This document shows positions 30,292-56,108 of a stretch of DNA of 64,000 nt, one piece after another (the first letter of the stretch is position 1; every line of letters starts with the position of its first letter). The DNA lies in contig CAWIAD010000002.1 in NCBI GenBank assembly GCA_963833985.1, positions 4,512,001 through 4,576,000 on the forward strand. Direction: 5' to 3'. Below the pieces are notes generated by a model that worked only from the letters and a program-made list of their open reading frames with translations, made no database searches and was not told the origin of the DNA. Made by a program: the position numbers and the translations under genes. The DNA comes from an uncultured Planctomycetaceae bacterium. Lineage in GTDB: Bacteria; Planctomycetota; Planctomycetia; Isosphaerales; Isosphaeraceae.

Positions 30292-30687
30292 AAGGTTAAC
30301 CCCGAAGCGGCCGCGCGGCCGGCGTGATGCTCTGTGTCTTCATATCACTCAGAAAAATGTCAGCACCCCCGTCCGCTCGTGCCGTGTGAGCGCGATCTTG
30401 CAATAGTGAAGGATAGCACCGGCGGCAAGCCGTGATGGGATCGTCCATCCTCGTTCAGAAAACCCAGTCGCCCAAAGCAGTTGCATCGCCACAAGTTGTG
30501 CCGTCGCGTACCGGCCGCCAACTCACAGGACGGTGCGCATCCATCATCGTCCGTATCCGATACGCGATCCAGTGCGGCGCGGTGTCGCAGCCTGAATGAT
30601 CTCCCGGCACATTCCGCCGTGCCCGTCGCGAGCGGATCGAACCACGAAGTTTTGACATTTCAATGGTCCGACAGCGAGGAGCTGGTC

Positions 30688-33600: not shown

Positions 33601-36600
33601 TTTCCTTCGACGGCCCGGCCGGCAGCGGGCTGGGCGTGAGCGGCGACTGGCAGAGCTATTCCGCACAGGTTTCCGGCAGCGCAGCGATCGAACTCATCGG
33701 CGGCTCCCTGGTTCTCAACGGTCAGCCCCTGCCCGCTGGGACTTACACGATCACGACCGGCCAGGCGACCATCGCGGGAAGTGGAACGAGCACTTCGCCC
33801 AGCTTCTCAGGGACGGTATCACTCTCCTCGAACGGCGACACGATCAACATTGAAGCGAGCGGCGGAAGCTTCTCGGTTGGCGGCAAGCCGCTCGAGACGG
33901 ACGATGAGGCCACGCTCGACCAGTACACCGGGACCATCAACGTGTCGGCCGGCGCAGGAGGTTCCCAATCCGTCAGCCTGAGCGGTTCCGCCGGCAACGT
34001 CCTTCAAGTGACGACCTCAACCGCGACGTTCACAACCGACCAGAACACGCCGATCACATTCGCCCCGAGCATCCATGGCAGCCTGGCCGACACCTACACG
34101 CTAACGGCCAATGCGCCGTCGGGATGGACGGTCACGATCGACAGCAAGGGGAATGTCACCGCAGCCCCCGCACCGGGACTCCAGGGCGGTACCTACCCCA
34201 TCCAGATCATCGCCCAGTCTCAGTCCGATCCCAACCTCGTGGCACAGGCGACTGTGGAAGTCACGATCAAGCCGACCACTCCGGGCATGAGCCTGGGCGT
34301 TGCGTCGGATTCCGTCCTGAGCGTGCCCTTCGATGGTGCCGATCTCCCGACCGGCTTCCGCGCGAGCATTCAGAACCTTGGCCCCGCGCCGGACACCTAC
34401 AACCTGAGCTTCTCCAACGTTCCCGCCGGGTTCAGCGTGCAGACGAGCACATCCAGCGTCACCGTTCCCGCCGGACAGACCGGAATCGTCGGAGTTTATC
34501 TCGTGCCCAACCCCGGCCAGCCCCTCCCGGCGCCTGGCACGCAGCTCTCGTTCACCGTGACCGCCACGAGCAAGACCACCTCGTCAATCACCAAAGCCCA
34601 GAACGTGACCTTCACCGTTCCGGCCATCGACGCGGTTACCGTCACAGCCAGCCCATCCAGTGTGAATACCACGCCCGGTGTGGCCGCCAGCGACACGCTC
34701 ACGATCACGAACGTGGGCAACGTGCCCCAGACCAATATCAGCTTCGCGAGCAGCAATTCTGCCGGGCTCTCCGTCTCCGGACTGGCTCCGCTCTCGCTGG
34801 CGGTCGGCCAGTCGACCACCGAGACCGTCACCTTCACTCCGTCGGCCTCAACGCCCCTGAACAGCATCCTCCAGTCGACCATCACGGCGACTTACGGACC
34901 GACGACATCACCCCAGACCCAGACCCTGAACATGACGGTCGACGTCGTCGTGCCTGGAGCAGCGGCGCTCGCCAACGCAGCGGTCGCGGCCCAGCAGCTC
35001 AGTAACTCAGGGCTGGCCGGGCGCCTGCAAGACCTGAGCACTGCGCTCACCAGCCTGGTGCAGAACCCAACCAGCCCGGTCTACCAGGGACAGGCGCTGG
35101 CCAATCTCGATAGCCTCATCAGCCAGCTCACCAACGATCCGTTCCTCTCCGGGTTCACCTCGGGACTGACCACGGCCCGCACGGCCCTTGCCTCCGCGTC
35201 CACCGCGAGTGCCGTTCAGTCGGCTGTAAGCGGCCTTGGCACCGCGCTCGGCTCGCTGGCGCAGGTGATCAGCGACGACGCCGCACACCAGTTCACGATC
35301 TCGCTCTCGCCCGACCGCAACATCGTCCAGCCCGCGGCGCCCGAGGTCTTCGATATCCTCATCACCAACAACGGTACGGCTGCCACGACCTATGACCTGG
35401 GCATCTCCGGCTTGCCCGCGGGCGTGAGCTCCGCGTTCAGCCAGCCGTCCGTCACGCTTCAGCCCGGGCAGTCGCTCACGGCCGGCAATAGCGCGGTCAC
35501 GCTCACGCTCACCGAGTCCGGCGGCACGCTCATCCCGGCGAACTTCACCATCGCGGCGACGGCCGAGGGCGCCAGCGAAATCACCCAGGGCACTCCCGGC
35601 TTCCTGACCCTGCGCGACTCCTCGATCATCGCCACGGGCATCGTCACCAACCCCGCGTACGTCAGCCCCGGCGGCAAGGTGGACGTCTCTGCGCAGATCC
35701 TGGGAACCGTGAACCAGGCCACGCCGATCTCGGCGTACTATACGGTCACGGATCAGGCCGGAAGCACGCTCTTCACGTCGACCGCAGTGCCGGTCTCGCT
35801 CGCGGTCAATAGCGGCCTGGTCACGGCCGACCTGGGCAACCTGGACACGACCGGGTTCGCCCCGGGAGTCGATTCGATCAGCGTCACGCTGCTGGATGGA
35901 AGCAGCAAGCCGATTCCCGGCGGTTCCACGAGCACCAGTTACCTCATCGGCCAGCCGGTGACGGCCACGCTCTCCACCACGCCGGCCACCGTGCCCACTG
36001 GCTCGGATACGGTCACGACCACACTCTCGGCGACCACGCTGTCCACGTATCCTTCGCCGCTCACCCTCCAGGGCGCCCTGGCCACCCCCGCACCCGGCAC
36101 CTCGGTCGCCCTGTACACGTCGGGCGGCAAGACCTACGCCTACGAGAGCGGCACCGGCGGCATCAACGCCATCGACGTGACCAACGCGGCCAGTCCCCAG
36201 CTCCTCGAGACCTTCGGCCAGAACGAGATCACCAACGGCAAGTTCGGCTTCAACGTCGCGCGGGTGGTCGGCAACGAGCTGCTGGTCGGCACCTCCAACG
36301 GCAACAACGGCAGCGTGTTCAACCTGCTCGTCTACTCGCTGGCGAGCCCGGCCAGCCCGACGCTCGTGAGCAACACCACCATCAATTACCGGTTCCTCAG
36401 CGACCTGCTGGTCAACAGCACCGGCACGGCCGTCTTCGTGCCGACCAATGGCTTCATGTACTTCGGTAGTACCATCTTCCAGGACTTCGGCGATTTCGTC
36501 GCCATCGACCTCACCGATCCCACCCAGCCGGTGCTCGCCAGCGCCCTGTTCACCAACCAGGGCCAGCCCAATGGCGGCAACATGAACCAGTTCGGCGGCG

Positions 36601-39390
36601 TCCTGGTGAACGACCAGATCGCTTACTCGGCCGGACTGGCTCCGGGCGGCAGCACGATCATCGGCAACACCGGGAACCTGCTGGTCGTGAACATCTCCGA
36701 CCCCAAGAACATGTCGCTGATCACCCAGCTCAAGATCCCCGGCACGATCAACATCCTGAATGTGGCCACTTACGGCAACCGCGCCCTGGTGGTTGGAACC
36801 GCGGGCACCGAGTCGAACATCTACAATCCGAACGCCACGGGCGTGGCCAATCACCTCACCCTGACGGTGCTCGACATCACCGACCCGAGCAACCCGCAGA
36901 TACTGGGCTCGACCTTCGTCACGAACGAGCAGTTCCCGCTCGGCGAAGCCGGCGCCAAGACCGACGTGGTCAGCCTGGGCAATGGCGACTTCGCCATCAG
37001 CGACACCGACCAGGGCGGCAACCCCGCCCTGCTGGTCGTCGATCCCAGCAACCCCGGCAACATCGTCGTTTCGGCCGCGCAGGTGCCCAGCGGCGTGCAC
37101 GGCATCACCGTCGCCGGGAACCTGCTCTACGCGACGACCTCCAGCGGCCTTTCCATCTATCAGATCGGTCAGCTCGTGAGCGACCCTGTGACGTTCTCGG
37201 TCAACCTGCCGCCCGGGACCGCGGCGAATATCCCCGCCAGTTCGTTCAATATCGCGCCCACCCAGATCACCAGCGGGACGACTGCCGATACGCTCACGTG
37301 GGATCGCTCGTTCTCGGCGGGCGACACGACGTTCACGTTCTCGTGGCAGTCGAGCATCAGCGGAGTACAGGCGGGGCAGACCACCGCCGTCACCCAGGGC
37401 TCGACCATCGCCTACGTCGCGCAGGGTTCTCCCGGCTCACTGACGCTGCCGGGGACGGCCGTCACCGGCACGCCGATCATCCGCCTGATCACGACCTCAG
37501 CAACCGAACAGCCCGGGGGATCGGCAACCTACGACGTACGGCTTTATAATCCCACAAGCGCCACTGTGACCTATTCACTGAGCGGTCCTGACCTGCCGTC
37601 CGGCGTCAACGGTAACTTCACGTCGGTCACCGTCCCTGCGGACAGCAGCGTGGACACGCCGCTGGTGCTTCACTCGGGAACCTACGCGCAACCAGGAACT
37701 TACCCGTTCAGCGTCACCGCCGATTACCTTCTCTACTCCTCGGACGGTGTGACGCAGCTTGGCGAGTTCAAGGGGTCGGCCTCAAGCTCCCTGGTCATCG
37801 CGGGACCACCCGTCGTCACACCCGATTCCAGCGCACACGGCGTGGTCGTGACGATCTCACCCACCCGGGCCGTGGCCGGGCAGGGCACATCGGCGACCTA
37901 CGTCGTTCAACTGACAAACGTGGGCAGCCTCGACGACCAGTTCTCACTGGAGATCAACGGACTGCCTCAGGGAGTCTATGGCTCGTTCGGCCAGAACGCC
38001 TATAGCCTGGACGTTCCCCCAGGCGCCAGCAACGCACGCGACGTGTCCCTGACCATCACGACAAGCGCCGGGACAGTTCCAGGCGATATCCCCTTCACGG
38101 TCAGGGCCGCGTCGGAGTCGAGCGCCGGGACGCAGGGAACCGCCCAGGCGACACTCAGCGTCGTCTTCGAGCGGGGTCTCGCTGGGCCTCAGCCCCCAGT
38201 CGACCACGCCCGGCGGCAGCCTTCAACTCGACGTCACGAACACGGGAACGCAGACAGACACTTTCAACCTGGCCCTGGCCGGCCCGGCAGCCCTGGTGGC
38301 AAAGCTGGCGACATCCACCGTCACTCTGGCGCCGGGTGCCTCGCAGACGGTTCCGATCACCACCACGGGGGTCGATTTCGCCGTCGCCGGAGCGTTGCCG
38401 CTGACGGCGACAGCCACCTCGCAAGCGAATCCAGGCGTCATGCAGGCAGCCACGTCCGACCTGGCTGTTCCATCTTTCACGGGCATGACGGCGCAGTTCA
38501 CTCCTGCGTCGGTGACGGTCAAGGCACCTGGAACCACGGGCCTGGTTCTTGAGGTGAAGAACACCGGCAACGACGACGACCGGTATACCGTCGCCATCAT
38601 CGGCACCACCGGTCCGGTCACGGCCAGCCTGATCGGCCCAGACGGACTGCCAGCGCAGTCGATCGCGCTCTTCGTGCTGCCTGCTCTGGGCACGGCCGAC
38701 CTTCCACTTCAGGCCACGCTCAACGGTCCCGGCCAGGGCACGATCACCGTCCTCGTCAAGTCGCTCACGACCGGCCAGGAATCCACCGTCGTCGCCACTG
38801 TCTCCGGTCAGAGCACCGTCATCGACGGCCCGCAGGTCCTGCTCGTCCAGCGCTACGGCGTGCACATGAACCCCACGACCATCGTGCTCACCTTCGATCA
38901 GCCCCTCAACCCGACGCTCGCCGACAACGTCAACGAATACCGCTTGCTCGACCCGCAAGGGCACGTCGTACCCATCTCTTCAGCCGTCTACGACGCGGCA
39001 ACCGATACGGTGACGTTGCATCCCCGGAACCGCATCAATCTGCACCGGACGTACAGGCTCACCGTCGTTGGCGTTGGGCCCAACGGCCTGACCGACAGTT
39101 CGGGGCTCCTGCTCGACGGCAAGAAGTCCGGCCAGCCCGGCAGTAACTACGTGACCACCATCAACGGGCGCAACCTGGTGCTGCCGCCGAACTGGAACCC
39201 CGCCTGGTCGCGGAAGGCCCCCGCCCGGAAGACGGCCGCCCGCTTCGCCACCGGCCATCCGCGGCCGTTCCATCGCTCGTCGACGCTCGTGAAGCTCGAT
39301 CCGCCAGGAACCCCGAGGGAACGGTTGGTCCCCGCCCGGCCCCGCCCCGCTCTTCCCCGGCGCTCGCTGCTGTTGCGCAGCCACCATTGA
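30688..39390 (+). CDS. giant (~2,900 aa) surface protein: planctomycete export motif, transglutaminase-like domain, hydrophobic cassette, Ig/NEW3-like repeats, LVIVD-like propeller, C-terminal Ig domain; indels near 30890 and 38167
   Basis: GAGGAG RBS and ATG at 30688. RRLLFESLEERVMLD; GNALDVASLGVALMRTSGIPAQY..HYW; repeated NxGxxxDTYxL; repeated LLV[V/Y]D/IxDP. Three ORF pieces join with single indels. Confidence 0.85.
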
Positions 39391-39563: not shown

Positions 39564-39608
39564 AAGCCCCGAGACTCACCTCGAATGGTGGATCCCGGGG
39601 CTTTTTTT
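39564..39608 (+). terminator. attenuator intrinsic terminator
   Basis: AAGCCCCG(39564-39571)...CGGGGCTT(39596-39603) stem with a T7 run at 39602-39608, just 5' of the leuA ATG. Confidence 0.8.
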
Positions 39609-39635
39609 CGTCCCAACCCGGAAAAGAGCCTGGTC

Positions 39636-41239
39636 ATGAGCACTGCGCAAGAGCCCTCCGCGTCCGCACCGGCGGCCGACCCGAACCGCGTCCGGATCTT
39701 TGATACGACGCTGCGTGACGGCGAACAATCGCCCGGCGCCAGCATGAATCTTGGAGAGAAGCTCGAGGTGGCGCGGGTGCTCTCCGGACTGGGCGTGGAT
39801 GTCATCGAGGCCGGCTTCCCGATCGCCTCGCAAGGGGACTTCGAGGCGGTGCGGGCCATCGCCGGCGAGATCACCGGCTCGACCGTCTGCGGCCTGCGCG
39901 CTGCAACGAGAAGGACATCGACCGTGCCTGGGACGCCGTCAGGTACGCGCAGACCCCGCGCATCCACGTCTTCCTGGCAACCTCGGCCATCCACCGCGAG
40001 CACAAGCTGCGCATGACCCGGCGCAGATCATCGAGCGCGCCGTCGCCAGCGTGCGCAGGGCCAGAAGTTACTGTGCCGACATCGAGTTCTCTCCCGAGGA
40101 CGCCGCGCGGACCGAGCTCGATTTCCTCTGCGAGGTTGTCGAGGCGGCCATCGAGGCCGGCGCCACCACCGTCAACATCCCCGACACGGTCGGCTACGCG
40201 ACGCCCACGCAGTACGCGGCCGTGATCCGCACGCTCAGAGAGCGCGTGCCGAACATCGGCCAGGCGGTCGTCAGCACGCATTGCCATGACGACCTGGGCC
40301 TGGCGGTGGCCAACAGCCTGGCCGGTGTCGAGGCTGGGGCCCGGCAGGTCGAGTGCACGATCAACGGCATCGGCGAACGTGCCGGCAACGCCGCGCTCGA
40401 GGAGATCGTCATGGCCATCAAGACACGCCACGATTACTACGGCGTGACCACCGGGATCAAGACCGAGCGCCTCTACCCCGCCAGCCGGGTCCTGTCGACG
40501 ATCACCGGGCTAGCGGTCCAGCGGAACAAGGCCATCGTGGGCCGCAACGCCTTCGCCCACGAGTCGGGCATCCACCAGGACGGCATGCTCAAGGAGCGGT
40601 CCACCTACGAGATCATGCGCCCGAAGACGTGGGCGTGCCCCGGACCGACCTGGTTCTGGGCAAGCACTCCGGCCGGCACGCGCTGCGCGAGCGGGTCATC
40701 GAGATGGGTTACAACCTCACCGAGGAGCAGATCGAGGTGCTCTTCAACGATTTCAAGGCCCTGGCCGACAAGAAGAAAGAGGTCTACGACCAGGACCTGC
40801 TGATTCTCGTCGAGAAGCACATGGAAGACATTCCCGCGCCGTGGCAGCTCCTCGGCCTGCACACCACGGCCGGCACCAGCGTGCTGCCCACGGCCACGGT
40901 CTCCATCCGCCGGCCCGACGGCGAGGTCGTGCAGGACGCGGCCATCGGCGACGGCCCCGTCGACGCCATCTTCAAGGCCGTCGAACGCGTCACGGGAGTG
41001 CACGCCAACCTGCACGAATTCGTCGTCCGCAGCGTGACCCAGGGCAAGGACGCGCAGGGCGAGGTGACGCTCGAGCTGGAGGTGGAAAGCGACGACCGCA
41101 GCTTTCGCGGCCGCGCCGCCTCCACCGACATCATCGAGGCATCGGCCCTGGCATACCTGAACGCCGTGAACGCGATCCAGACCCACAAGGAGCGCGGCCA
41201 CGTCCGCGAGGTCGTCGGCCGCCCGGCGCCGGGGCGTGA
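39636..41239 (+). CDS. leuA: 2-isopropylmalate synthase; four apparent single-base deletions (~39897, ~40021, ~40622, ~41224)
   Basis: [49 protein letters not shown], and regulatory domain GDGPVDA...STDIIEAS. Confidence 0.95.
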
Positions 41240-41377
41240 TGAGGCAGTCTCGAGCCTCTTGATGGCGATGGCAAAGGTGAGGCATTTCGCATATGCTGGT
41301 TGCTCGACGCCGGCCCCATCCCAGCCTCCCGCCTGGACGTCTTCGCGAGGAGCCGATGTCTCTTCCCGGGTTGGTCC

Positions 41378-41839
41378 ATGAGTAGAAAGCGACACCGGGC
41401 ATCGCCCAGAGTCAAAACAGAAAGAACCGAGCACACACCGAGGTCATTCCTGCGGGCGGCGACCCAACGAAGGGAGGCGGCATCATTCCTGTTCAGCAGC
41501 GGCATTTACCTAATGGACTCCATCTACCTCGCCGGATACGCAGCCGAGTGTTCGCTCAAGGCGGTGATCCTGTCCAGATCGCCGGTCTCAAAGAGAGACG
41601 GCGTACTCGAAGAGATTAGCTCCGGATCTCGGGGACATAACTTTGACTTCCTCGCGGACATTCTCAGGCAAAAGAACGTTGAGATACCAAGTCCGGTGAC
41701 CGAAAGCCTCGAGCGGGTTAACAAGGTATGGTCCACGGACTTGAGATATCGAGGATCTCAAGTCCACCCCCGAGTTGCTCAGACGATCATTGAGGCTATC
41801 AGACTGATCGTCGACTGGGCCGAGAGGAGTGCAATATGA
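41378..41839 (+). CDS. HEPN-domain protein
   Basis: YLAGYAAECSLKA, GHNF and WSTDLRY match the HEPN E..LKA / H / RY pattern. Visibly lower GC than the flanks. Confidence 0.7.
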   Translation: MSRKRHRASPRVKTERTEHTPRSFLRAATQRREAASFLFSSGIYLMDSIYLAGYAAECSLKAVILSRSPVSKRDGVLEEISSGSRGHNFDFLADILRQKNVEIPSPVTESLERVNKVWSTDLRYRGSQVHPRVAQTIIEAIRLIVDWAERSAI

Positions 41840-42150
41840 ATGGCTGGGAGAATAAGAAGACGGCCGAAACCCGCAAGCTTGAGGAACATTTCCGCAAGAC
41901 GTTTCCCAGGACCGATGCGTACCGCTTCAATTCCGCGTCAATCAGGGTGAGGGTTATCGACGATCGTTTTGAGGGCAAATCGATGGCGGAACGGGAAGAT
42001 ATGGTGATGCCACTTCTCGAGAAACTCCCTAAGAGGATTCGAGAAGATGTGCTCATGCTATTAAAGCTTGCGCCAAGCGAACTCGACACTCCGAACGCGC
42101 AAATGCTCATTAACGCTGAGTTCGAGCATCCTCTTCCTTCGCGTCTTTGA
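41836..42150 (+). CDS. small BolA-like or degenerate MNT-like protein
   Basis: IRVRVIDDRFEGKSMAERED...LLKLAPSE. ATGA overlap with the HEPN gene and GAGGAG RBS. Confidence 0.7.
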   Translation: MNGWENKKTAETRKLEEHFRKTFPRTDAYRFNSASIRVRVIDDRFEGKSMAEREDMVMPLLEKLPKRIREDVLMLLKLAPSELDTPNAQMLINAEFEHPLPSRL

Positions 42151-42258: not shown

Positions 42259-42825
42259 ATGTCGCGGAACAACGAACCGTCCGATGCAAGTCTGGTGGCG
42301 AAGGTTCTGGCAGGCGACCGTGAGGCGTTCGGCTGCCTTTACGACCGCTACGCTCGCCTTGTCCGGGCCGTCGTGTACAGGGTTGGGAACGATATCCCGG
42401 CGGCTCATGACCTGACGCAGGAGTGCTTCCTGCGGGCCTACCGTAACCTTTCACAACTGAGACAGCCGGACCCGTTCGGTGCCTGGGTGGTTGGCATCGC
42501 GCGCGCCTTGGCCAGCGAGCACCGGCGTTCCTTGCGGCGTGATCGGCATCGGTTCGTCGCCGATGAATCGCTCGATGTCTGGTTCGAGCCGGATATCCCC
42601 GGCGCCCTCCAGACCGCCGACGAGATCGAGCTCGTGCTCCGCCGGGTTGCCGAGCTTCCGGAACGAGAACGTATGGCCGTTCATGCGTTCTTTCTTCAGG
42701 AAAGCAACGCAGCTCAAGCGGCCAGACTGCTCGGGCTCTCGCGATCGGGAATCTACGCGCTGCTGCAGCGCGCCCTGGCACATCTGGCGGAAGCCCTTCG
42801 CCAAGGCGTGGGAAAGGAGGTGTGA
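42259..42825 (+). CDS. ECF RNA polymerase sigma factor
   Basis: SDASLVAKVLAGDREAFGCLYDRY, AHDLTQECFLRAY, LPERER. Confidence 0.9.
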   Translation: MSRNNEPSDASLVAKVLAGDREAFGCLYDRYARLVRAVVYRVGNDIPAAHDLTQECFLRAYRNLSQLRQPDPFGAWVVGIARALASEHRRSLRRDRHRFVADESLDVWFEPDIPGALQTADEIELVLRRVAELPERERMAVHAFFLQESNAAQAARLLGLSRSGIYALLQRALAHLAEALRQGVGKEV

Positions 42826-42828
42826 GCC

Positions 42829-44204
42829 ATGCCCTGTCTGTCTTCAAGGGAGCTCGTGCGAATCGCGCTGGGGGCCCGCGCCGACCAATTTCAATCCGCG
42901 CATCTTGAGCTGTGTGAACGATGTCAAAGCAGCCTCGACTCGATCCGCTTGCTCGTCCAGAGACTGGGCCACGCCCATACCCGATTCAACCACCAGCACG
43001 AAGAAGCCCGTGCGCGATTGCTGGCGAGTTTGCCGGATGCGTGGCCGCGGTCCCTGCCCGCGAAGCGGTGGAGAGCCTACTCCCGCACGATTGGAGCATT
43101 CACGATGAGACAGAAACTCGCCCTGGGAAGTGCCGGCATGGCTGCCGTGCTGACCGTTTACGTCGTCTGGTTCGCGACCGTCGCGAAGCCGATCTACGGC
43201 ATGGACGCGATGCCGGAAACGATTCGCAACGCGAAGTCATACGATTACGCGATGACCACCGAGATGCGGCTCCCCGGAGAGGCAGGCAAGCCGCCCGTCA
43301 TCGCGGAGATGCTGGGGCACTGCTACTGGGTTGCGCCGGGTCGTACCGGGTCGAGACGCTCTTGAAAAAGAGCGCCCTGGACCAGGACCTGGTGATGATC
43401 TTGCCGGCCGGCAAACCGGGTGTGGTGATTGACCGGAAGCGGAAATCTTACATACGTCAGCCGGCGCGCCTGGGCTACTTCTCGCCGCTCATGGCCCTGG
43501 ACAAGCTGAGTACCTTCTCCGGCCATGCCGACCGCGATCTCGGTACGCGGCAAATCGAGGGCAAGCAGGCCAGGGGCTTCGAGATCGAGGCCCGCAAGAT
43601 TGATCCGGACTCTTACTCCGGCTCGATGGAGATCTGGCTCGACGCCGCAACCAACCTGCCCCTGCTGCTCCGTTACGAGCTGAAGGGGGCAAGCGCTCCT
43701 GGCACCATCCGGATGACGGATTTCCACTGGAACGTTGATCTGGACCCCAAGCTCTTCGATCCCACGCCCCCGGAAGGGTTTGCCGAGGACGTGCGCGCCG
43801 CGTCACCGCTGGACGAACAGGTGAAGAAGATCACGGAGGGACTGAAGGTCTACGCCAGGTACAGCGGTGGGCACTATCCCCGCGTCAAGATGCTTTACGG
43901 AGACGTCACGCGCGATGAGCTTGCCAGGCTCAGCGGCGCACCGTACCCGCCCCGGACAGAGAAGGACTTTAGCGATCCCCGTATCGCGATGATTCATAAC
44001 GCGACCTGGGGCTTCTCGCACATCAACGTGATCCTCCGCGAAAACGCCGATGCCGCCTATCACGGGAAGACGGTTGGACCGGAGGACAAGACGAAAGTCC
44101 TCCTGCGATGGAAGCTTGACGACGGTACCTATGAAGTGATCTACGGCGACCTGCGGTCCGAGGCCGTGCCGGCCGGACGCCTGCGTGCCCTGGAAGGCCG
44201 GTAG
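42829..44204 (+). CDS. zinc-finger anti-sigma factor with TM helix and periplasmic LolA-like domain; indel near 43335
   Basis: HLELCERC (HxxxCxxC), a TM helix, then EIWLDAATNLP and FHWNVDLDPKLF. Starts 3 nt after the sigma gene. Confidence 0.8.
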
Positions 44205-44213
44205 CCGGCCGCG

Positions 44214-45093
44214 CTACTCGGGAACGATGCCCCCGTGCGGCGACATTCCCATCGCGCTGAAGATCTGTTCGCGCCGCTGGAGGTACGCGGCGGAATTCAG
44301 GTCGCGGGGTCGGGGAAGATCGATCTCCACCACTTCCTGGATTGTCGCCGGGCGGCGGCTCATGACGAGCACGCGCCCGGCAAGCTGGACCGCCTCGTCG
44401 ATATCATGAGTGACAAAGAGAATGGTCTTGCGCTCGGCTTCCCAGATCCGCACCAGGTCGTCGCGCATCTTGAACCGGGTGATGTAGTCGAGCGCCTCCG
44501 AAGGGCTCGTCCATGTAGAGGATCTCGGGGTTCGCGGCCAGCGCCCGGGCGATCTCGACCCGCTGCCGCATCCCGCCCGAGAGTTCGCGGGGATAAGACC
44601 GCTCGAACCCGGAGAGCCCGACCATCTCGACATAGTGCTCGATCACGCTGGCTCGTTGCGGCCGAGGAATCCGGTCCAGGCCAAAGCCGATATTCTCGCG
44701 AACCGTGAGCCAGGGGAAGACGCCGCCCTCCTGGAATATGAAGATCCGCCGCCGGTCGGGCCCATCGATAGGTTCTCCCTCGACGAGAACCTCGCCCCGG
44801 CTCGCGCGGACAAATCCGCCCAGGAGGTTCAGAAGCGTGGTCTTGCCACAGCCCGACGGACCAACGATGCAGACGAACTCCCCCTGGCGGACCTCGAGGT
44901 TGATTCGCTCCAGCACATGGGTGAGATCGTCCCGGCTCAGGCTGGGATAGCTCATCCAGAGCTCGCGGACGGAGATGGCCAGTGGTCCGGTCTTGCGGTC
45001 GTCTGCGTTCGGAGGTCCCATGGTCGTGGTGCGAGAAAGTCCCGGTTCAGCGCTCTGCGGGGCCTGGCGGATCACTCTCGGAGAAAAGGCCAT
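44214..45093 (-). CDS. ABC transporter ATP-binding protein, NitT/TauT type; indel near 44498
   Basis: GPSGCGKTT, LSGGMRQR, MDEPF, FVTHDIDEA. Confidence 0.92.
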
Positions 45094-45103
45094 GACAGGT
45101 CCC

Positions 45104-45898
45104 TCAGCGGTTTCCGTATCCCCAGCTAACCTCGTCGAACCGCTCGAGTCGGCGCACCACCAGGTCGAGGGCCAGGCCGATCAGGCCGATCACGACCATG
45201 CCTGCGACCACCAGGTCGTAACGCTTGCCGGCGTTGCGGGCATCGACGATCAGGTAGCCCAAACCCGAGTTCACGGCGATCATCTCGGCGGCGACCACGA
45301 CCAGCCATGCGATTCCGAGCGCGATGCGGATGCCCGTGAGGATCTGTGGCAGGGCCGCCGGCAGAATCACTCTGCGGAACAGCCGCATCCGTCCCAACTC
45401 GAAATTATTCGCCGCCCTGAGGTAGACCGGCTGCATGTTCTGCACGGCCGCCGTGGCCGAGACCGTGATCGGAAAGACGCTGGAAAGAAAGATCAGGAAC
45501 ACCGGCGCGGCGTCCGAAACTCCAAACCAGAGGATGGCCAGGGGAATCCAGGCGATCGGCGAGATCGGTCTGAGGACCTGGATCAGGGGGTTGAGCGCCT
45601 GATAAGCCGGCCGGAACCAGCCCAGAAACAGGCCCATCGGCACGCCGACCAAAATCGCCAGGAAGAACCCCCACGTCACCCGAAACAGCGAAGCGACGAC
45701 GTACTTCAGCAGCAGACCTTTGTGGGCTAGCTCGCCGATACCGAGCACGACCTCCCAGGGGCCGGGAAACAGATCATTACGCGCGAACCCGACGATGCCT
45801 TCCCAGCCCAGGAGCACCACGGCCGCCACCGCGCACGGGAGAACCAGCTCGGCCCGCGGTCGCCACGACGGCCGCAGCGCGTTTCGGTCGAGGTTCAA
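45104..45898 (-). CDS. ABC transporter permease, NitT/TauT (SsuC-like)
   Basis: LRPISPIAWIPLAILWFG, ILPAALPQI, VVVAAEM. TTG start overlaps the SBP stop. Confidence 0.92.
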   Translation of the reverse strand: MNLDRNALRPSWRPRAELVLPCAVAAVVLLGWEGIVGFARNDLFPGPWEVVLGIGELAHKGLLLKYVVASLFRVTWGFFLAILVGVPMGLFLGWFRPAYQALNPLIQVLRPISPIAWIPLAILWFGVSDAAPVFLIFLSSVFPITVSATAAVQNMQPVYLRAANNFELGRMRLFRRVILPAALPQILTGIRIALGIAWLVVVAAEMIAVNSGLGYLIVDARNAGKRYDLVVAGMVVIGLIGLALDLVVRRLERFDEVSWGYGNR

Positions 45899-46941
45899 GG
45901 AGCGCCCTCCCAGGCGTAAGGTTGAATGGTTGTCTCGTCAAGAACAAACGAGGCGTCCGCGTAGTCGTCAAAGCGGGCGGTGCCATTGAGGATTCCCGCT
46001 TCCTTTCCGAGCTGTTCGATCTCCTCAAAATCCTTGCGAACCAGAGAGAGGTGCGTGTATTTGACCCGATCGGGTGGCTTGCTGAGGACAAACCTCAGCA
46101 GCTGCGGATCTTGATGGTAGTACCGGATTGCCGAGAAATCGGCCGCCTGCATGCGGTGCGCCATATCGCGGTCGAGCCACTTGCCGCTTTTCGCAATCCC
46201 ATCGACGAGGCGCTGAACATCAGCGCGCCGAGTCTGGATCACGCGGTCAGAGACGGCCAGCACGCAGGAAATGAAGTCAGGCCAGACGTCCTTGGTCATG
46301 AACAGAACGCGACCGTAACCATCCATCTCGGTTTGCGCCATGAACGGCTCTCCCGAGATCACCGCGTCAACGGAGCGCGAGTAGAGCGCAGCGGGCATGT
46401 CGGGCGGGGGCAGCTCCAGGAGCGTGGCCTCGCTCATCTTCATGCCTCGCTCCCTGAAGGCTTTGAAGAGAATGAGGCTCTGGTTGGAGAACCGGTTGGG
46501 GATGGCGATTCTGCGACCGCGCAAGTCCTCGATCTTGTGGATTATCGAATCCTTGTGCACCATCATGGTCGTCCCGTCGCGGTGCCCCAGGTAGACAATC
46601 TTGATCGGCACCCCTTGCTCGCGGAGCGACATTGCCAGCGGGGCGAGGATGAATGTCGCTTCCAGATCGTTCGCCAGAAACGTCTCCTTGAGCTCTGGCC
46701 AGCCATTGAACCGGATCGGATCGAAGATCCCGTCGCCACTCATTTTCTCGTTGATGAAGTTGGTCACCGGGCACGTCAGGTGGCAGGTGACCGGGATGAA
46801 GCCGACGCGGAACGGCGAGCCAGCACGACTGCGCCCTTCGAGAGTGCGGTCGAGCAGACCCAGGTTCATGGTCATGTGAAGCAGGCTGATGACCGCGACC
46901 CAGCCGAGTGAGCCGAGGAGCACGGTCCGTCGCATCGACAT
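45895..46941 (-). CDS. ABC transporter substrate-binding protein, NrtA/CmpA/SsuA-like
   Basis: RVGFIPVTCHLTCP, FNGWPELKE, GHRDG, IAIPNRFS, PPPDMP, GEPF, DVWPDFISCVL. Confidence 0.88.
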   Translation of the reverse strand: MSMRRTVLLGSLGWVAVISLLHMTMNLGLLDRTLEGRSRAGSPFRVGFIPVTCHLTCPVTNFINEKMSGDGIFDPIRFNGWPELKETFLANDLEATFILAPLAMSLREQGVPIKIVYLGHRDGTTMMVHKDSIIHKIEDLRGRRIAIPNRFSNQSLILFKAFRERGMKMSEATLLELPPPDMPAALYSRSVDAVISGEPFMAQTEMDGYGRVLFMTKDVWPDFISCVLAVSDRVIQTRRADVQRLVDGIAKSGKWLDRDMAHRMQAADFSAIRYYHQDPQLLRFVLSKPPDRVKYTHLSLVRKDFEEIEQLGKEAGILNGTARFDDYADASFVLDETTIQPYAWEGAP

Positions 46942-46974
46942 CGCGAGCCTTTCGTTTGAACGATTCCTTCCGGA

Positions 46975-48045
46975 TCACCCTTGGAGCGGCAGAGACCGCC
47001 GGCCAAAGAGGAACAGCACGTGCAGGGCCATGTTCAAGACGATCACACCGAGGGCAGCCAGCGCCAGCTCCTGGCTGGCGAGGTGCTCGTGATAGCACGT
47101 CCAGCAGTACTGGAAAAGGCACAAGAGAGCTACGGTACCCAGTATGATGCGTCGCGAGATGAAGCGTGAGACCAGGCTGCCCAGCGGGCCGCCCACGGCG
47201 ACGACCGGGGCCGCCGCCAACCAGTAAGGAAACACATCGACGATCGTCGCTCGGCTGGACGGCCAGCAGGCCGCCGCCAACAAGGAGCATCCTGCGCCAA
47301 CCACGGAGGTAAACGCCATCAGGATGACCGAACTCGGAATGGCCACCTTGATGTCGGTGTGATAGAGCAGGACGAGTGTGCCGTAGAGCAGAATGTCGGC
47401 GCCGACGCCTATCACCGAAGCGAGCAGTCCGCCAAGTGCGCCCACGACAAAGCCGATCACCGGGTCGCCCGCGAAGTACGTCCGCGAGAGCCCCTGGTTA
47501 GCCACGATGCCTCGCATCCGGACCAGAAGCAACAACCCAAAGCTGGCATAGACGACCGAAAAGAGCACCTTCACCGCGCTGTCCGCGACGTTCGGGGCCA
47601 CCAGCCCCATCCCCAGCGGCATCGCGAAGGCGGATCCCAGGAGCGCGAATCTTAGGATCCGCCACTCGATGCTCCTCCCGCGAGTGACAATATAAACGCT
47701 GGCCGATACCATGCCGATCGACTGGATGGCCAGGCTGAAGGTTCTGCCAAGCCGAGCCGGTTCGTTGAACACGTAAACGAGCAAGGGGAAGCCGATTGTC
47801 CCGCCGGCAACCGGGCTCGAGCCGCCGACGAACGAGCCTCCCGCCATCGCCAGGGCAATGCTCCAGTGGTCGCGCACCACGGACCAGAGACCAGCGCCCT
47901 GCACAATCACGAGCCAGGCCGTGTAGAACAGCAGGAGCCAGATCGCGAAGATCCGCCGCGCCGGCCCTCCCGCGGATGAGCTGCCGCGGGAAGGGACCGA
48001 GGTGGGCGAGACGACCGGTGCTCTGGTCACGAGAGCACCACTCAT
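46975..48045 (-). CDS. TSUP / TauE-SafE family membrane transporter
   Basis: Multi-TM protein with GSSPVAGGTIGFP, FSLAIQSIGM, GVGADI, SVILMAFTS, AAAPVVAVGGPLG. Confidence 0.8.
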   Translation of the reverse strand: MSGALVTRAPVVSPTSVPSRGSSSAGGPARRIFAIWLLLFYTAWLVIVQGAGLWSVVRDHWSIALAMAGGSFVGGSSPVAGGTIGFPLLVYVFNEPARLGRTFSLAIQSIGMVSASVYIVTRGRSIEWRILRFALLGSAFAMPLGMGLVAPNVADSAVKVLFSVVYASFGLLLLVRMRGIVANQGLSRTYFAGDPVIGFVVGALGGLLASVIGVGADILLYGTLVLLYHTDIKVAIPSSVILMAFTSVVGAGCSLLAAACWPSSRATIVDVFPYWLAAAPVVAVGGPLGSLVSRFISRRIILGTVALLCLFQYCWTCYHEHLASQELALAALGVIVLNMALHVLFLFGRRSLPLQG

Positions 48046-48434
48046 TTGTGAAGAATCTGCTTCTGATTGCCAAGGATTTCACGCTGGTTGGCGACGATCT
48101 CCCGTTGCCCTTCCAGAAGCTTATCCTGGTTGGCCTGAATGTGCTCCTGGTTCGCCAGGATCGAAGCCTGGTTCGCCACCGTCCGATCGAGCTTGTCCTG
48201 GTTGGCCAGGATCGCAGCCTGGTTGGCCTCGATGCTCGCCTGGTTCGCCAGCACCTTGTCGAGCTTCTTCTGGTTGTCCCGGATCGACTCCTGGTTCGCC
48301 AGGATCGCGGCCTGATTGGCGGCGATCTTGTCGAGCTTTGATTGGTTCTTCTCGATCGACTCCTGGTTCGCCAGGATCTTCTCCTGGTTGCTGAGAATCG
48401 ATTTCTGATTGGCGATCACGTCATCGGCTGCCAT
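48042..48434 (-). CDS. 130-aa heptad-repeat coiled-coil protein (IxxNQxx)
   Basis: GGAG RBS. Fifteen [I/V/T]xxNQxx heptads. Stop overlaps the TauE start (ATGA). Confidence 0.85.
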   Translation of the reverse strand: MAADDVIANQKSILSNQEKILANQESIEKNQSKLDKIAANQAAILANQESIRDNQKKLDKVLANQASIEANQAAILANQDKLDRTVANQASILANQEHIQANQDKLLEGQREIVANQREILGNQKQILHK

Positions 48435-48542
48435 GGAGAGTGCTCCGTTCACGAAGAAAAAACGGGGAAAAGCCTGGCCAGGCGGGACCCGTTCGGGTTC
48501 CGCGCTCATTCTCCCGCCGGCCAGTCAACAACCTGCGCCCGA

Positions 48543-49805
48543 TCAATGTCCAGTTGCGTTGGGTCTGGTCTGGGAGATCGCAGTGGAAGGCTTCGTTCCC
48601 GTTGCCGGGTACTGGTACTCATCCTGGAGGATCAGGACCAGCGACTGCTCCAGCTCGTCCGGCTTGAAACCGAATGGGCCGCGGCCGTTCTTGAAAGCGA
48701 CCTTGCCGTTGCGGTCGATCAGGTAGAACCGGCCGGGCATGCCGCTGTAGCGGGCTCCCACCGCGTCGTCGATCGTGTCGACCAGCAATGGAAAACCCAG
48801 GCCCAGCAACTTCCCGCAGCGCTGGGCCACGGCGACCCGTTCGGCGTAGGTGCCCGGCTGCGCCGTGGTCACGCCCACGTGATCGTTGCTTTCCATCCGC
48901 CAGCCGTCGGTGGGATGGGCTTCGCGCACGTAGACCATCAGAAAGTTCGCGCGGTCGGCGTAGCGGCGGTGCAGCTTCTCGAAATTGCCGGCCATGCTGC
49001 GGAACGGCCCGCAGGTGAAGTTGCCGAAGATGAGCACGATCGGTTTGGGACCAACTTCTTTCGACAGCGTGAGCTGCTTCTTGCCATCGTATGTCTTGAG
49101 CGTGAAATCGGGTGCGGGCTCGTCCAGTTTCGGTCCGGGCTGAAGCGAGCCGATCTCCTGGCGAAACAGGCCCCGGATGAGCATGGCCTTGGTGGGACGG
49201 TCGCCGCGCGACATGCCGCGTGCCGGCGCGGGGAAGGCCGTCTCCAGGTCGGCACGCGACAGGAAACCCAGGCCGTCGGAGTCGGTGGCGCGGAAGAAGG
49301 CCTCGAGCTCCTCGCGCGTCACCTTGCCGTTGCCGTCACGGTCCAGCCGCGAGAAGAGGTACGCGCCGGGCGGGGTCGGTGCATCGCTCCTGGAGAAATC
49401 GAAATCCGTGCCGGTGAGCGCACCGTCGCGGTCGCGATCGAGCCGGGCGAAATCGTGGTCGAGACCCGGAAACTCCGCGCGCGTGATGCGGCCGTCGCCG
49501 TCTCGGTCATAGCGTTTGCGGGTGCTGTCCCAGGTGAACCGCGTCTGGGTGACGGCGGTCCGGAACCAACCGTAGTTCGGTCCCATGGCCTCGTCGTCCA
49601 GGATGGCCGTGTACATATCGAGCCATTCGGGACGATCCGGCCAGGACTCCTTGAGGACCCTGGCGATCTCGTCGGCCTCGGTGGCCGCCGGAGCGCCCGT
49701 GGGTGTCGCGGCCCCCTTTGGCTCGTCGGCGGACGCGGGCCACGCCGCAACCGCCGCGCCGAGAAGCCATGTCAGCATCTTGGTCCATGGTCTCGAAACA
49801 GGCAT
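48543..49805 (-). CDS. exported EF-hand plus iodothyronine-deiodinase-like (thioredoxin-fold) protein
   Basis: Signal peptide; four DxDxDG/DxDxxG loops; FGNFTCGPF, VYVREAHPTDGW, LVDTIDD, YSGMPGRFYLID, GRGPFGF. Confidence 0.85.
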   Translation of the reverse strand: MPVSRPWTKMLTWLLGAAVAAWPASADEPKGAATPTGAPAATEADEIARVLKESWPDRPEWLDMYTAILDDEAMGPNYGWFRTAVTQTRFTWDSTRKRYDRDGDGRITRAEFPGLDHDFARLDRDRDGALTGTDFDFSRSDAPTPPGAYLFSRLDRDGNGKVTREELEAFFRATDSDGLGFLSRADLETAFPAPARGMSRGDRPTKAMLIRGLFRQEIGSLQPGPKLDEPAPDFTLKTYDGKKQLTLSKEVGPKPIVLIFGNFTCGPFRSMAGNFEKLHRRYADRANFLMVYVREAHPTDGWRMESNDHVGVTTAQPGTYAERVAVAQRCGKLLGLGFPLLVDTIDDAVGARYSGMPGRFYLIDRNGKVAFKNGRGPFGFKPDELEQSLVLILQDEYQYPATGTKPSTAISQTRPNATGH

Positions 49806-49874
49806 GAAGAAACTCCTTGAGGAAGGTCGTGGTTGTAATCGGATCGGAAGCGGAGTGAATCGCTCCGGACCGCG

Positions 49875-50339
49875 TCAACGTCGCAGCATGTCCCGGAAAA
49901 CCGTGACCGAGGGACTGGTGCCCACCAGGTAATACACGGTCTTCTCGATCGGTTTGCCCTTGTTCCCGGCGAGCGTGAGCTTGACCCGCACGCTCAGGTT
50001 CGCGTCGCGCGGTTGCCCCTCGCCCAGCAGTTGATAATCCAGCAATCGGACGCCGCCCTGCCAGTCGAAGTCCTGCACCGTCATGGGAGGTGCGGCCGCG
50101 GCAAGCGATCCGGGGGCATCCCCGTTTTTCCAGCGATCCAGTGCCGTCACCAGCGCGTCTCGTGCGCGGGACGAATCCACCGCGTGGGCCGCGCTGCTCC
50201 CGCAGCCGGAAAACGCCAGCAGCGAGAGCGCGGCCAGGCAGGCGGCGAGAATGCCCAGCGAACCGTACAGGGCCAGTGTGCGTTCTGCCCTGACGGACGA
50301 CATGGACTGACTTGTCAGGCCCGATTTCGTGTTCCACAT
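49875..50339 (-). CDS. lipoprotein of the DUF1559-associated type
   Basis: Lipobox-like FSGC, then ARDALVTALDRWKNG..QDFDW..YLVGTSP. Confidence 0.75.
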   Translation of the reverse strand: MWNTKSGLTSQSMSSVRAERTLALYGSLGILAACLAALSLLAFSGCGSSAAHAVDSSRARDALVTALDRWKNGDAPGSLAAAAPPMTVQDFDWQGGVRLLDYQLLGEGQPRDANLSVRVKLTLAGNKGKPIEKTVYYLVGTSPSVTVFRDMLRR

Positions 50340-50358
50340 GAAGCTGCCCCTTCCTGTA

Positions 50359-51313
50359 TCAATAGCTGTCTGCGCTGATCACTTCGCCGCCGGAAATGGT
50401 GCCAAGCACCGCCAGACGGCCAGGTTGATCGAATCTTTCGTGAACCGCACCGAGCCGTCCCCCAGCAGCAGGTTCACGCCACCCGGGTGGTGGCTGCTCG
50501 GCGGCATCACGGCGCGGAGCGAAAGGAAGAAACCGCACGACCGAGAGTTCGGACCCGAGACATGAGTGAAGATATGCTGCCCGCACAGCCAGGCGCACCC
50601 ATGAACAGGGGAAACTGGTTCTGCAAGTTCGTGATATCCACGGCCTGGCATTGCTGAAAGGCCTGGTCGGGCGTCGTGGGAGCCAGCGGTGAGAAGAAGA
50701 CGTCGGCGACCGGGCTGACGATCGCGTTGTTGCCGTCGGCCAGGACCCGCTCGCTGAAGAACCCGGTGTTCGACAGCCCGTCGGTGATCGCGGCGAACTT
50801 CGTGGCACTGTCGCCGTGGAATACGCCGTTGGGCGTGGGCAATCCCACGTTCGGCCCCACGGGCGACTGCCAGACGATGCCACTGCCCATGTCGGCCATG
50901 TAATTCGTCTGCGCACCCAGGGAAGGCAAGGGATCGCTCAGGTCCGAGGGGCAGACGAACTGGCTGACGACCGTGTACATCGCGGTCGTGTTCGTGGGGT
51001 CCTGGTAGTTGAAGGCGCAGTTCACCGAGTTGTAGATGCCCGTCTGCTCCATGAGCGGCAAGAGCATGGTGAGCGCGGAGAGCTCCGTGACGTTGAACAC
51101 CATGTCGGCCCCGGGCAGGGCCCCGCGCGACTCGGCGTAGTTCTGGCACGCCAGCCCGATCTGCTTGAGGTTGTTCACGCACTGGATCCGCCGCGCAGCC
51201 TCGCGGGCCGATTGTACGGCTGGCAGCAGGAGAGAGATGAGGACAGCGATGATGGCGATGACCACCAGCAGCTCGATGAGCGTGAAACCTCGGTGCGTGG
51301 AACGAATACGCAT
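50359..51313 (-). CDS. DUF1559 family prepilin-type protein; indels near 50597 and 50405
   Basis: [77 protein letters not shown]. Confidence 0.92.
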
Positions 51314-51657
51314 AAGCAACTCCTTGAGAATGATCGAAGGAATGAGAAGACTTTGATAACAATGCGCGCTAATAATGAGGGGAGTACGGATCGCGCAGGA
51401 TCTGCGCCGGCGCTGATGACAGCGGCCATCAGAGCCGTGGCGTTTGCGCGAAGGCCCAGGGTTTCCGGCACGGGTCGGACCGCCGCGGCAGTCGAGCGCC
51501 GCTCGAGTGCTCGGGGACGGATCCTGACGTACAGGCACCCGCGCACGCGGGACCACCGCGAGCGCCAGAAGATGTCCGCATCTGCACCGGACGCCGCCAG
51601 CACGCATCGAGCCTGCGGCGCAGCGCGCAGCCGGCCATACGCTCCTGACAGGGTTCC

Positions 51658-52111
51658 TCAGGCAGAGAAGGCGCGGCGGCGCGGTCGGGGCGGGTGGAAG
51701 ATCGAGCAGGTCCGGTCGATGCCGGGAGGACCGGGATCACAGGGCAGGCTTGCGATGAGTCCCGGCTCGTTAGCCGGGCCAGCGGTCACTGCCAGGGCCC
51801 ACTCGACGCGGAAAAGGCGGGAGCCGGACGGCTGTGTCGACGACGGTGCCGCGGGGCTCCTCGAGCAGAAGGCCCCGGTGCACGGCATTGCCGGCAACCG
51901 GTGTGGGGTGCGATCGGCCAGGTCGAGGAGTGCCCCCGAACGTTCCAGCTGCTCCAGGCCAGCGAACCAGGCTGCCGCGCCATCGTGGAATGGACGTAAG
52001 GTGCGTCACAGCCGGCACGCACGGCGCCGGCATGAAGGCGAACGCAGCCAGCAGCGCGAGCCATCCGCCGCTGAGGCGATTTCCCAGGAGGTTTCGAACT
52101 GGGAGTCTCAT
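51658..52111 (-). CDS. secreted Cys-containing leader-type protein ending IFHPPR (reconstructed across two indels, ~52025 and ~51960)
   Basis: GAGGTGG RBS and ATG at 52111. Signal peptide ...AVRA|GC, then PCTGAFCS and [15 protein letters not shown]. The ORF track splits it over three frames. Confidence 0.6.
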
Positions 52112-55241: not shown

Positions 55242-56108
55242 TCACCAGGAGAGCGTTTCGGGGAAGAACTCGGCGATCAGCTCGCGGTAATAGGGCTCGA
55301 GGGCAGCGACATCGGGCGGCTGGTGGCCCTTCGAGTAAAGATCGTAGGGGTTGAACTTGCGGACCCACTCCATCTCCCGGCGGTCGCGGTCATTCATCAG
55401 GCAGGTGTACTCTCCCTCGCGGTGGGCGGGGTAGAAGGAGTGGTAGCGGATCATGGCCAGCGCCTCGTCGGGCAGGTAATTCTTGACCACGTGGTACAGA
55501 TATTCATCGTGGCCCCACGAGAGGTCCACCTTGTCGAGACCGCAGCCCGGCTCATAGATACCGTTCTCGGACTGGTAGGCGGGCACGGAGGAATCGGGAT
55601 TGTCGCGAAAGAACTCGTGGAAGACGATCTTTTCCGAGTAACGGCAGCCAACCGGGAAGGTATCGCCCACAACGGCCCACTGCGGCTCGCCCCAGAGGCA
55701 GAGGATCTTGCCGAGGTCGTGGATCAGCCCCGTAAGGATGAACCAGCGGGGATGGCCATCGGCACGAATCGCCTCGGCCGCCTGCATCAGATGTTCGATC
55801 TGTGTCAGTTCGGTATCCGGATCGCTGTCGTCGACCAGGGTGTTGAGATACTCCATGGCGTCCCAGATTCCCATCCTGCGGCGCGACAGGGAGAGGAACT
55901 CGCGCTTCTTGGCCCGCACGAAATCCACCGTCTGGGAGGTGTGGTTGAGATAGTAGAACTCGCGCACGCCGGGGCGGACGCTGTCGCCATAGTCGCGAAA
56001 CGCCGCTCCTTCGCCGGGCGCCGGGTAGCGCTCGACCAGGAACGACTCCCAATCGTCAAGGTGTTCCAGCGGTTCAGGTTGGGACGGGCCGGATGAGTTC
56101 GCTGCCAT
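55242..56108 (-). CDS. inositol oxygenase (MIOX) family HD-domain di-iron enzyme
   Basis: [63 protein letters not shown]. Confidence 0.93.

Follow-up and report, generated by a model that had tools for sequence, protein, structure and literature searches.

The NitT/TauT class of ATP-binding cassette (ABC) importers, and binding proteins that carry selenocysteine (Sec), are already known kinds; the SAO system combines an ABC importer with Sec or Cys in the binding cleft (10.1101/2022.07.06.499078). A 2026 review of 119 selenoprotein families, whose Table 1 includes those of Haft and Tolstoy (2025), names BtuF, SaoX and SaoB as the only binding proteins (PMC13188914). Related binding proteins of clade B, associated with carbon monoxide dehydrogenase (CODH), have been modelled with a Zn site of two Cys and one or two His in a motif resembling that of beta-carbonic anhydrase, to which the structural alignment is poor (PMC13592312). 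Here we describe a locus of nine co-directional genes (44214–52111, minus strand) in a 64,000-nt stretch, hereafter the window, from the genome of an uncultured Planctomycetaceae bacterium (10.2 Mb, 96% complete). At its core is an importer with a membrane-anchored binding protein of a family in which many relatives almost certainly contain Sec.

We propose, with a probability of roughly 0.58, that this is an ABC importer of a scarce halide, likely iodide, with a Zn-type site in its binding protein. Halide import appeared likely because relatives of the transporter adjoin, or are fused to, halogen-handling genes, and because halide is the sole need common to flavin halogenases, an iodide-dependent cassette, the deiodinase fold and the N@d layers of a coiled coil. 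Chloride is usually plentiful, and a high-affinity pump would therefore suit iodide or bromide better; the enediyne and deiodinase links would favor iodide. The original prediction had proposed an undescribed envelope sensing or anion-handling system. Anion handling as a theme fits the halogenase, enediyne, UnbU and N@d-coil links, which, like the Sec in the binding protein, had been missed and which narrow the anion to halide.

Selenocysteine and the Predicted Zinc Site of the Binding Protein

The codon for position 53 in the binding-protein motif VT[C/U]HLTC is TGC in the window and TGA in many relatives. Across 204 copies (200/204 loci), it was TGA in 85, TGC in 72 and TGT in 47, and never TAA or TAG; U and C alternated across the tree, with homology continuing through the TGA. 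After removal of duplicates, and without a covariance model, the minimum free energy of the hairpin from +10 to +48 was −11.6 ± 3.2 kcal/mol in 74 TGA copies vs. −7.1 ± 3.0 kcal/mol in 108 Cys copies. Third-position entropy was lower at 15 of the 16 codons of this region in the TGA copies, as for an element like the selenocysteine insertion sequence (SECIS). The Sec gene counted, selA, was present in 26/27 TGA genomes and 17/26 Cys genomes (a partial gene without the motif, L059, was excluded). Sec is thus almost certainly a constituent of the binding protein in many relatives, as judged from codons, hairpins and host genes. The window's genome possesses selA and tRNA-Sec, yet its own binding protein has Cys.

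The family is large (7,707 matches at E <= 1e-40, some probably more distant relatives) and patchy nearby: the closest relative of the window copy (78%) came from Isosphaeraceae, and the close family was found in 0/13 same-genus and 2/36 same-family genomes. It was absent from the 119-family catalogue in the available part of that review (PMC13188914), the accessible text on BSepDB (PMC13326102) does not name it, and no NCBIfam 20.0 model scored above its cut-off. Neither a published description of the Sec-bearing family nor a bacterial ABC importer of halide was found in a literature search that misses most subscription papers. As far as the searched literature shows, the family and the proposed halide cargo are both new.

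The predicted structure (pLDDT, a per-residue confidence score, 80.6) had the Zn-bound Staphylococcus aureus protein 3UN6 as its top match, both by fold and by sequence profile (E 3e-40). Eight residues were invariant in 96 non-redundant members (H54, C57, H120, R121, D122, N153, C226, and R292); distant relatives had D or H at position 53. Zn sites of this kind can bind soft anions through a position left open. The His and Cys residues of 3UN6 and of the clade-B proteins align with positions 53, 120, and 226, where a Zn site is predicted for those proteins as well (PMC13592312). The identity to these proteins in the fold alignment was ~23%, and the [U/C]HLTC motif, Sec, the N-terminal membrane anchor and the halogen-related partners are peculiar to the window family.

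The combination of NMT1_2, BPD_transp_1 and an ABC ATPase (frameshifted in the window) identified a NitT/TauT importer of the NMT1-like kind. It shares the fold class and three-gene layout of the oxyanion importers SsuA, TauA, NrtA and CmpA, but it fell below all curated cut-offs, had no ssuD, tauD or nar neighbors and bears a Cys/Sec-His site. A sulfonate importer was rejected (TIGR01728, 107 vs. 163.5 bits; TIGR01729, 33 vs. 304 bits), and the relatives scored below these cut-offs too. The framing in terms of sulfur- or nitrogen-containing anions gained no support either, as no sulfonate or nitrate catabolic gene was found among the conserved neighbors. An SAO system was likewise rejected, with SaoX at 40/300, SaoP at 180/295 and SaoA at 159/360 bits. 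Weak SaoX similarity is present, whereas the motif differs from that of the SAO proteins, no Sao neighbors were seen and the phyla are different (10.1101/2022.07.06.499078).

Several distant relatives of the binding domain (P0158, P0207, P0227, P0228, P0233, P0240, and P0241) were fused to GAF, MCP, response-regulator/SpoIIE or AsnC domains, which suggests that the same type of site serves as a sensor too. In Thermoanaerobaculia (L046, L049, L050, L052, L041, and L054), a fixed housekeeping locus carried Sec binding proteins or ATPases that were duplicated in tandem.

Halogenase Fusions and Enediyne Cassettes

Neighbors were scored in four locus sets (n = 54, 29, 80, and 40, the last phylum-wide), 203 loci in all; the 54-locus set comprised 51 GTDB loci, two from relatives and the window. 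In four fetched loci (L037, L038, L063, and L096, from Planctomycetota, Acidobacteriota and two unassigned metagenome-assembled genomes, MAGs), the ATPase was fused to a flavin halogenase. A protein search with one fusion returned 294 proteins at E <= 1e-150. All 120 listed fusions had both Pfam domains and matched the window ATPase (median 65% identity), and WxWxIP was present in 108/120; linkage to the binding-protein family was shown for the four fetched loci only. The fused domain was closest to PltA (E 6.5e-93), its nearest structures were halogenases, and it kept GxGxxG, WxWxIP and the Lys corresponding to K73 of PltA, which is presumably functional; it is accordingly a predicted flavin-dependent halogenase. 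Halogenases with WxWxIP were adjacent or fused in 9/203 loci on several branches of the tree, and one further was found at 7.7 kb.

Two of the fusion loci (L037:467-20626 and L038) were biosynthetic clusters with three halogenase-like genes, an AMP-ligase, a carrier protein and an acyl-CoA dehydrogenase, and an alginate-export porin was inserted within their ABC operon.

The enediyne cassette is said, from work by Gui in 2024, to make a diiodotetrayne, and we take its genes E3, E4 and E5 to be DUF1702, UnbV and UnbU. These three genes have been termed "of unknown function" (PMC9992847), and anthraquinone-fused enediynes require iodide (PMC11350584, PMC11069151). The transporter was located within or beside DUF1702/UnbV/UnbU cassettes in 5/203 loci (L012, L017, L262, L158, and L224) belonging to two clades. 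A polyketide synthase (PKS) was visible in three of the five, and the full set of PKSE (the enediyne PKS), E3, E4 and E5 was found in L012, L017 and L262. In L012 the order was DUF1702, permease, ATPase, binding protein, UnbV, UnbU and PKS, and the other four loci resembled it. Relatives of the transporter thus lie inside the minimal PKSE cassette (PMC9992847, PMC11069151) and co-occur with pairs resembling E4/E5. The window itself, in contrast, had no PKSE and its genome no E3 or E5, and the actinomycete plasmid cassettes lacked the importer.

Co-occurrence was also seen at the genome level, where "UnbU" denotes a membrane protein that matches PF03116 weakly. Among 201 Blastocatellia genomes, 29 had the transporter, 41 had UnbU and 25 had both (5.9 expected), within 10 kb of each other in 20 of the 25. 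Four transporter genomes lacked UnbU, and two of these carried an enediyne-type cassette. Among 401 Planctomycetota genomes, the motif-bearing transporter was present in 36, UnbU in 33 and both in 27 (3.0 expected), mostly unlinked; for this count, the transporter genomes were reduced from 39 to 36 by removal of the motif-less, distant G217, G332, and G374. The tallies take in two unpublished genomes (G700 and G631), neither of which alone carries any claim. In one genome, G501 (L275:781-13622), AhpD, TPR-UnbV, UnbV, UnbU and an NQ coil surrounded a different NitT/TauT binding protein (~25% identity; TC, H, and CC motifs), an apparent non-orthologous replacement.

These distributions bear on the possibility that the importer supplies the cluster's Sec/Cys redox enzymes with a sulfur- or selenium-containing anion (thiocyanate, sulfide, thiosulfate or selenite). 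Predicted selenoproteins (deiodinase-like and AhpD CxxU) abound in the loci, TauE belongs to a sulfite-exporter family, sulfonates and nitrate are ligands of this fold class, the enediyne iodoanthracene also has a thiolactone, and such anions could be bound at a Zn-thiolate site. However, selA occurred in 192/201 Blastocatellia genomes and the transporter in only 29, where it followed UnbU instead, which also weakened the candidate of a general selenium importer. Moreover, selA was found in 0/203 loci, 9/26 Cys-type genomes showed no selA (although these MAGs are incomplete), and no conserved sulfur-relay or sulfonate gene was present among the neighbors. With the halogenase fusion left unexplained as well, we consider such a cargo fairly unlikely.

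The Coiled Coil, the Deiodinase-Like Protein and TauE

The coil has hydrophobic residues at a and Asn at d of its heptads, as in N@d coiled coils, with 15 NQ layers spaced 7, 7, 7, 10, 7, 7, 10, 7, 7, 10, 7, 7, 14, and 7. N@d layers reportedly bind iodide, according to Hartmann in 2009. In crystals, they hold and coordinate chloride (PMC13580157). The coil was found near the transporter in 16/54, 4/29 and 29/80 loci and in 0/40 of the phylum-wide set, and it accompanied the transporter in two phyla and in both main clades of the tree. When the coil was searched in the Atlas, all matching clusters were unnamed and the recognition score was low.

The deiodinase-like protein aligned to mouse Dio3 (4TR3, E 4e-20) and shares the fold, the catalytic position and the EAHPxDGW motif with the iodothyronine deiodinases Dio2 and Dio3 and with the NF038285 bacterial selenoproteins, among which its score, catalytic Cys/Sec and EAH motif place it. 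It differs from both in its EF-hand N-terminus, its likely export and the Cys in the catalytic position (codon 49011–49013), for which many homologues have TGA. The gene was found within 8 kb of the transporter in 13/54 loci, an adjacency confined to one clade. As an obligate partner, the deiodinase was rejected, since genomes with the transporter showed no enrichment (12/39 vs. 123/401 Planctomycetota genomes).

In the great majority of the listed matches from those 123 genomes, the gene had one in-frame TGA. Several AhpD-like CxxU genes and deiodinase-like TGA genes occurred in each of L021, L023, L025, L027, L030, L031, L034, and L035; some were mutually fused, and the neighborhood was dense in predicted selenoproteins. 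AhpD-like genes and porins lay within 8 kb of the transporter in 12 and 8 of the 54 loci.

TauE, present in 2/54 loci at that distance and in 4/203 overall, was rejected as a core component, and the suggested export of the anion by TauE is thus at most an accessory function.

Instead of free halide, the cargo might be an organo-halogen, such as an amino acid bearing iodine, or an intermediate of a pathway. An APC amino-acid permease and an AhpD CxxU gene are part of the cluster in L014, L198 and L251 and of a second leader-DUF1559 module in the window's genome, and the deiodinase-like neighbor would fit this cargo as well. That protein looks exported, however, and would act before import. The substrates of the partners are also diverse (pyrrolyl-type clusters and a polyene PKS), so that a shared small anion is the simpler reading, and we regard an organo-halogen as quite improbable. 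In the case of L014, the permease and the AhpD-like gene, of the type seen in the second module, were placed inside the main cluster.

Organization of the Locus

Pfam and NCBIfam matches and reading of the open reading frames (ORFs) bore out all nine genes in the predicted order (Table 1). Signal peptides and the lipobox were judged by eye.

Table 1. Genes and spacer of the putative halide importer locus, in transcription order.
Feature	Coordinates	Strand	Evidence and remarks
Leader ORF, likely exported, CxxxxC and C-terminal HPPR	51658..52111	-	Three-frame translation; whole homologues
Spacer	51314..51657	-	Predicted hairpin over DUF1559 ribosome-binding site; overall folding ordinary, z = -0.74
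DUF1559 prepilin-type protein, 3' part frameshifted	50359..51313	-	PF07596, PF07963 (N-methyl)
Lipoprotein partner of DUF1559	49875..50339	-	Lipobox by eye; no Pfam
EF-hand/deiodinase-like protein, likely exported	48543..49805	-	PF00837 E 3e-25; NF038285 520 bits (cut-off 250)
IxxNQxx (N@d) coiled coil, no signal peptide (by eye)	48042..48434	-	Heptad spacing; predicted anion store
TauE/SafE-family membrane protein, accessory	46975..48045	-	PF01925
Membrane-anchored NitT/TauT binding protein, motif VT[C/U]HLTC	45895..46941	-	NMT1_2; Cys53 codon 46783-46785
ABC permease	45104..45898	-	PF00528
ABC ATPase, frameshifted near 44500	44214..45093	-	Fused to flavin halogenase in relatives

The seven predicted gap lengths after DUF1559, whose stop codon at 50359–50361 sets the first, were exact (19, 69, 108, −4, 33, −4, and 10 nt). 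The expected lack of an obvious intrinsic terminator was also borne out, with nine terminator-like sites vs. 7.4 ± 3.0 in shuffles and none in the coding-strand intergenic gaps. Folding of the 48435–48542 gap was unremarkable (z = +0.47). The "hairpin-rich spacer" folded within chance, and on this folding statistic it was rejected as a special structured RNA. The cluster genes, the lipoprotein among them, were single-copy in the genome; the exceptions were DUF1559, the permease and the ATPase.

Three genes were frameshifted (the leader, DUF1559 in its 3′ part and the ATPase). These frameshifts are likely assembly errors, because flanking genes such as leuA are frameshifted too and intact homologues exist elsewhere.

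The original prediction allowed that the halves on either side of 48435–48542 might be two adjacent modules, and it was to fall if they never co-occurred elsewhere and were transcribed independently. The halves do co-occur: DUF1559, the lipoprotein, the deiodinase-like protein, the NQ coil and the binding protein were found together within 10 kb in 10/54 loci, the window included. Of these ten, four or five are closely related to one another, and contig ends truncate several of the other loci. The lipoprotein was near the transporter in 10/54 loci. Alternatively, two unrelated modules (DUF1559-lipoprotein-deiodinase, and coil-TauE with an ordinary sulfonate/nitrate ABC transporter) might lie side by side by chance: gene order was rearranged in L011 and L030, the upstream half was absent from most transporter loci outside Planctomycetia, and DUF1559 genes are abundant (86 tblastn matches, pieces of paralogues, in the window's genome). 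Since the five-gene set recurs in several lineages and the binding protein falls below the SsuA, TauA and SaoX cut-offs, chance proximity is very improbable. Gene neighborhoods support the view that the locus is one conserved system.

The leader, spread over three frames in the window assembly, proved to be a genuine gene: whole homologues were found upstream of DUF1559 in 6/10 regions examined (L014, L025, L027, L031, L034, and L035), and the window's genome has a second copy at C2:5645540. Four homologues and two window frames matched no family, neither in Pfam generally nor DUF2946 (PF11162) in particular. CruR is a copper-responsive DUF2946 leader (PMC9426467). Like CruR, the window leader is a likely exported ORF upstream of an envelope operon; its N-terminus resembles a signal sequence, it contains a pair of Cys residues, and it ends in xxPP. 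Unlike CruR, which has CxxC and RAPP, it lacks a DUF2946 match and shows CxxxxC with HPPR or RPPR (PMC9426467).

The second leader-DUF1559 module (G000:C2:5645500-5649500; L264:5300-9540) continued with an APC permease and an AhpD-like CxxU gene with an in-frame TGA; just past it, a DUF692-like ORF (by eye) lay on the opposite strand.

The resemblance to CruR raises the possibility of a metal importer controlled by a leader of the CruR kind, with a soft metal (Cu, Zn, Hg or As species) as the cargo bound at the Cys/Sec-His site. The Sec binding proteins SaoB and SaoX have been proposed to bind metals (10.1101/2022.07.06.499078), the 3UN6 structure was solved with Zn, enediyne medium contains CuSO4, and an ars-like operon (by eye) followed the transporter in L055. 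Yet the ATPase is fused to flavin halogenases, which need no metal, anions are the ligands of N@d layers, the leader departs from DUF2946 in the ways just described, and no conserved metal-homeostasis neighbors were found. A metal cargo therefore appears unlikely.

In the remainder of the window, a very large surface protein (30663–39390) with a transglutaminase-like stretch (by eye) and a frameshift near its end was followed by the frameshifted leuA (39585–41381), and a HEPN-domain gene with a small BolA-like gene formed a toxin-antitoxin-like pair (41300–42150). An extracytoplasmic function (ECF) sigma factor and a frameshifted anti-sigma-like gene (42259–44204) were convergent with the operon. 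A myo-inositol oxygenase (PF05153, E 3e-112) was located at 55242–56108.

Proposed Mechanism and Points against It

Under the halide import reading, a predicted Zn site formed by [U/C]53, H54, H120 and C226, similar to that of 3UN6, would bind a soft anion at its open position, and the permease and ATPase would import it. The cytoplasmic N@d coil may store or buffer the anion in its Asn layers. In relatives, the anion would feed a flavin halogenase or an UnbV/UnbU (E4/E5-like) pair. In the window's genome, the likely exported deiodinase-like protein might supply the importer by releasing iodide from organo-iodine, TauE might export surplus anion, and the CxxxxC/HPPR leader might set expression through ribosome stalling. 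Deiodinase release, TauE overflow and leader control are the weakest steps of this mechanism.

Several observations count against halide as the cargo. We know of no bacterial deiodinase-like protein with a demonstrated substrate, and, as noted above, genomes with the transporter carry the deiodinase no more often than Planctomycetota genomes overall. Kin are not independent in the co-occurrence counts, and the enrichments, obtained without a matched comparison to other NitT/TauT families, are overstated on that account. The window's genome, at the completeness given above, showed no match to Trp_halogenase, RnfD/UnbU-like proteins or DUF1702, and no halogen-related neighbor was found within 8 kb in 37/40 phylum-wide loci and in the Thermoanaerobaculia loci. 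In seven further loci, beyond the nine with WxWxIP halogenases, the adjacent halogenase-like genes lacked the canonical motif. All 14 UnbU regions fetched from Planctomycetota (L265-L278) were UnbV-UnbU pairs with no PKS or E3. With 16 CRTAC1/UnbV-like loci in the window's genome, an adjacent UnbV counts for little by itself. DUF1702 was present in 22 actinomycete plasmid records and no plasmid record matched the binding protein, which indicates that enediyne clusters do not generally carry the importer. Finally, the chloride affinity of N@d layers is perhaps weak (~0.1–1 M in one peptide; PMC12933892).

A wider joint reading can be put forward tentatively, at rather less than even odds. The pieces would form a widespread and so far unrecognized bacterial iodine economy, in which an ABC importer with a Sec/Zn binding protein brings in iodide with high affinity, an N@d coil serves as a dedicated store of halide, selenoprotein deiodinases release iodide from soil organo-iodine, and the E4/E5 pair is a general iodide-activating unit borrowed by enediyne clusters.

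Implications

Whatever the ligand, a large selenoprotein family is added, and gene finders truncate its TGA members. If the importer does carry halide, a testable function would follow for bacterial deiodinase-like selenoproteins, for coils built entirely of N@d layers and for UnbV/UnbU pairs outside enediyne clusters, and how E3, E4 and E5 obtain and activate iodide would become directly testable. The importer would then mark clusters for halogenated products in uncultured soil bacteria, with a bearing on the cycling of iodine and radio-iodine in soil.

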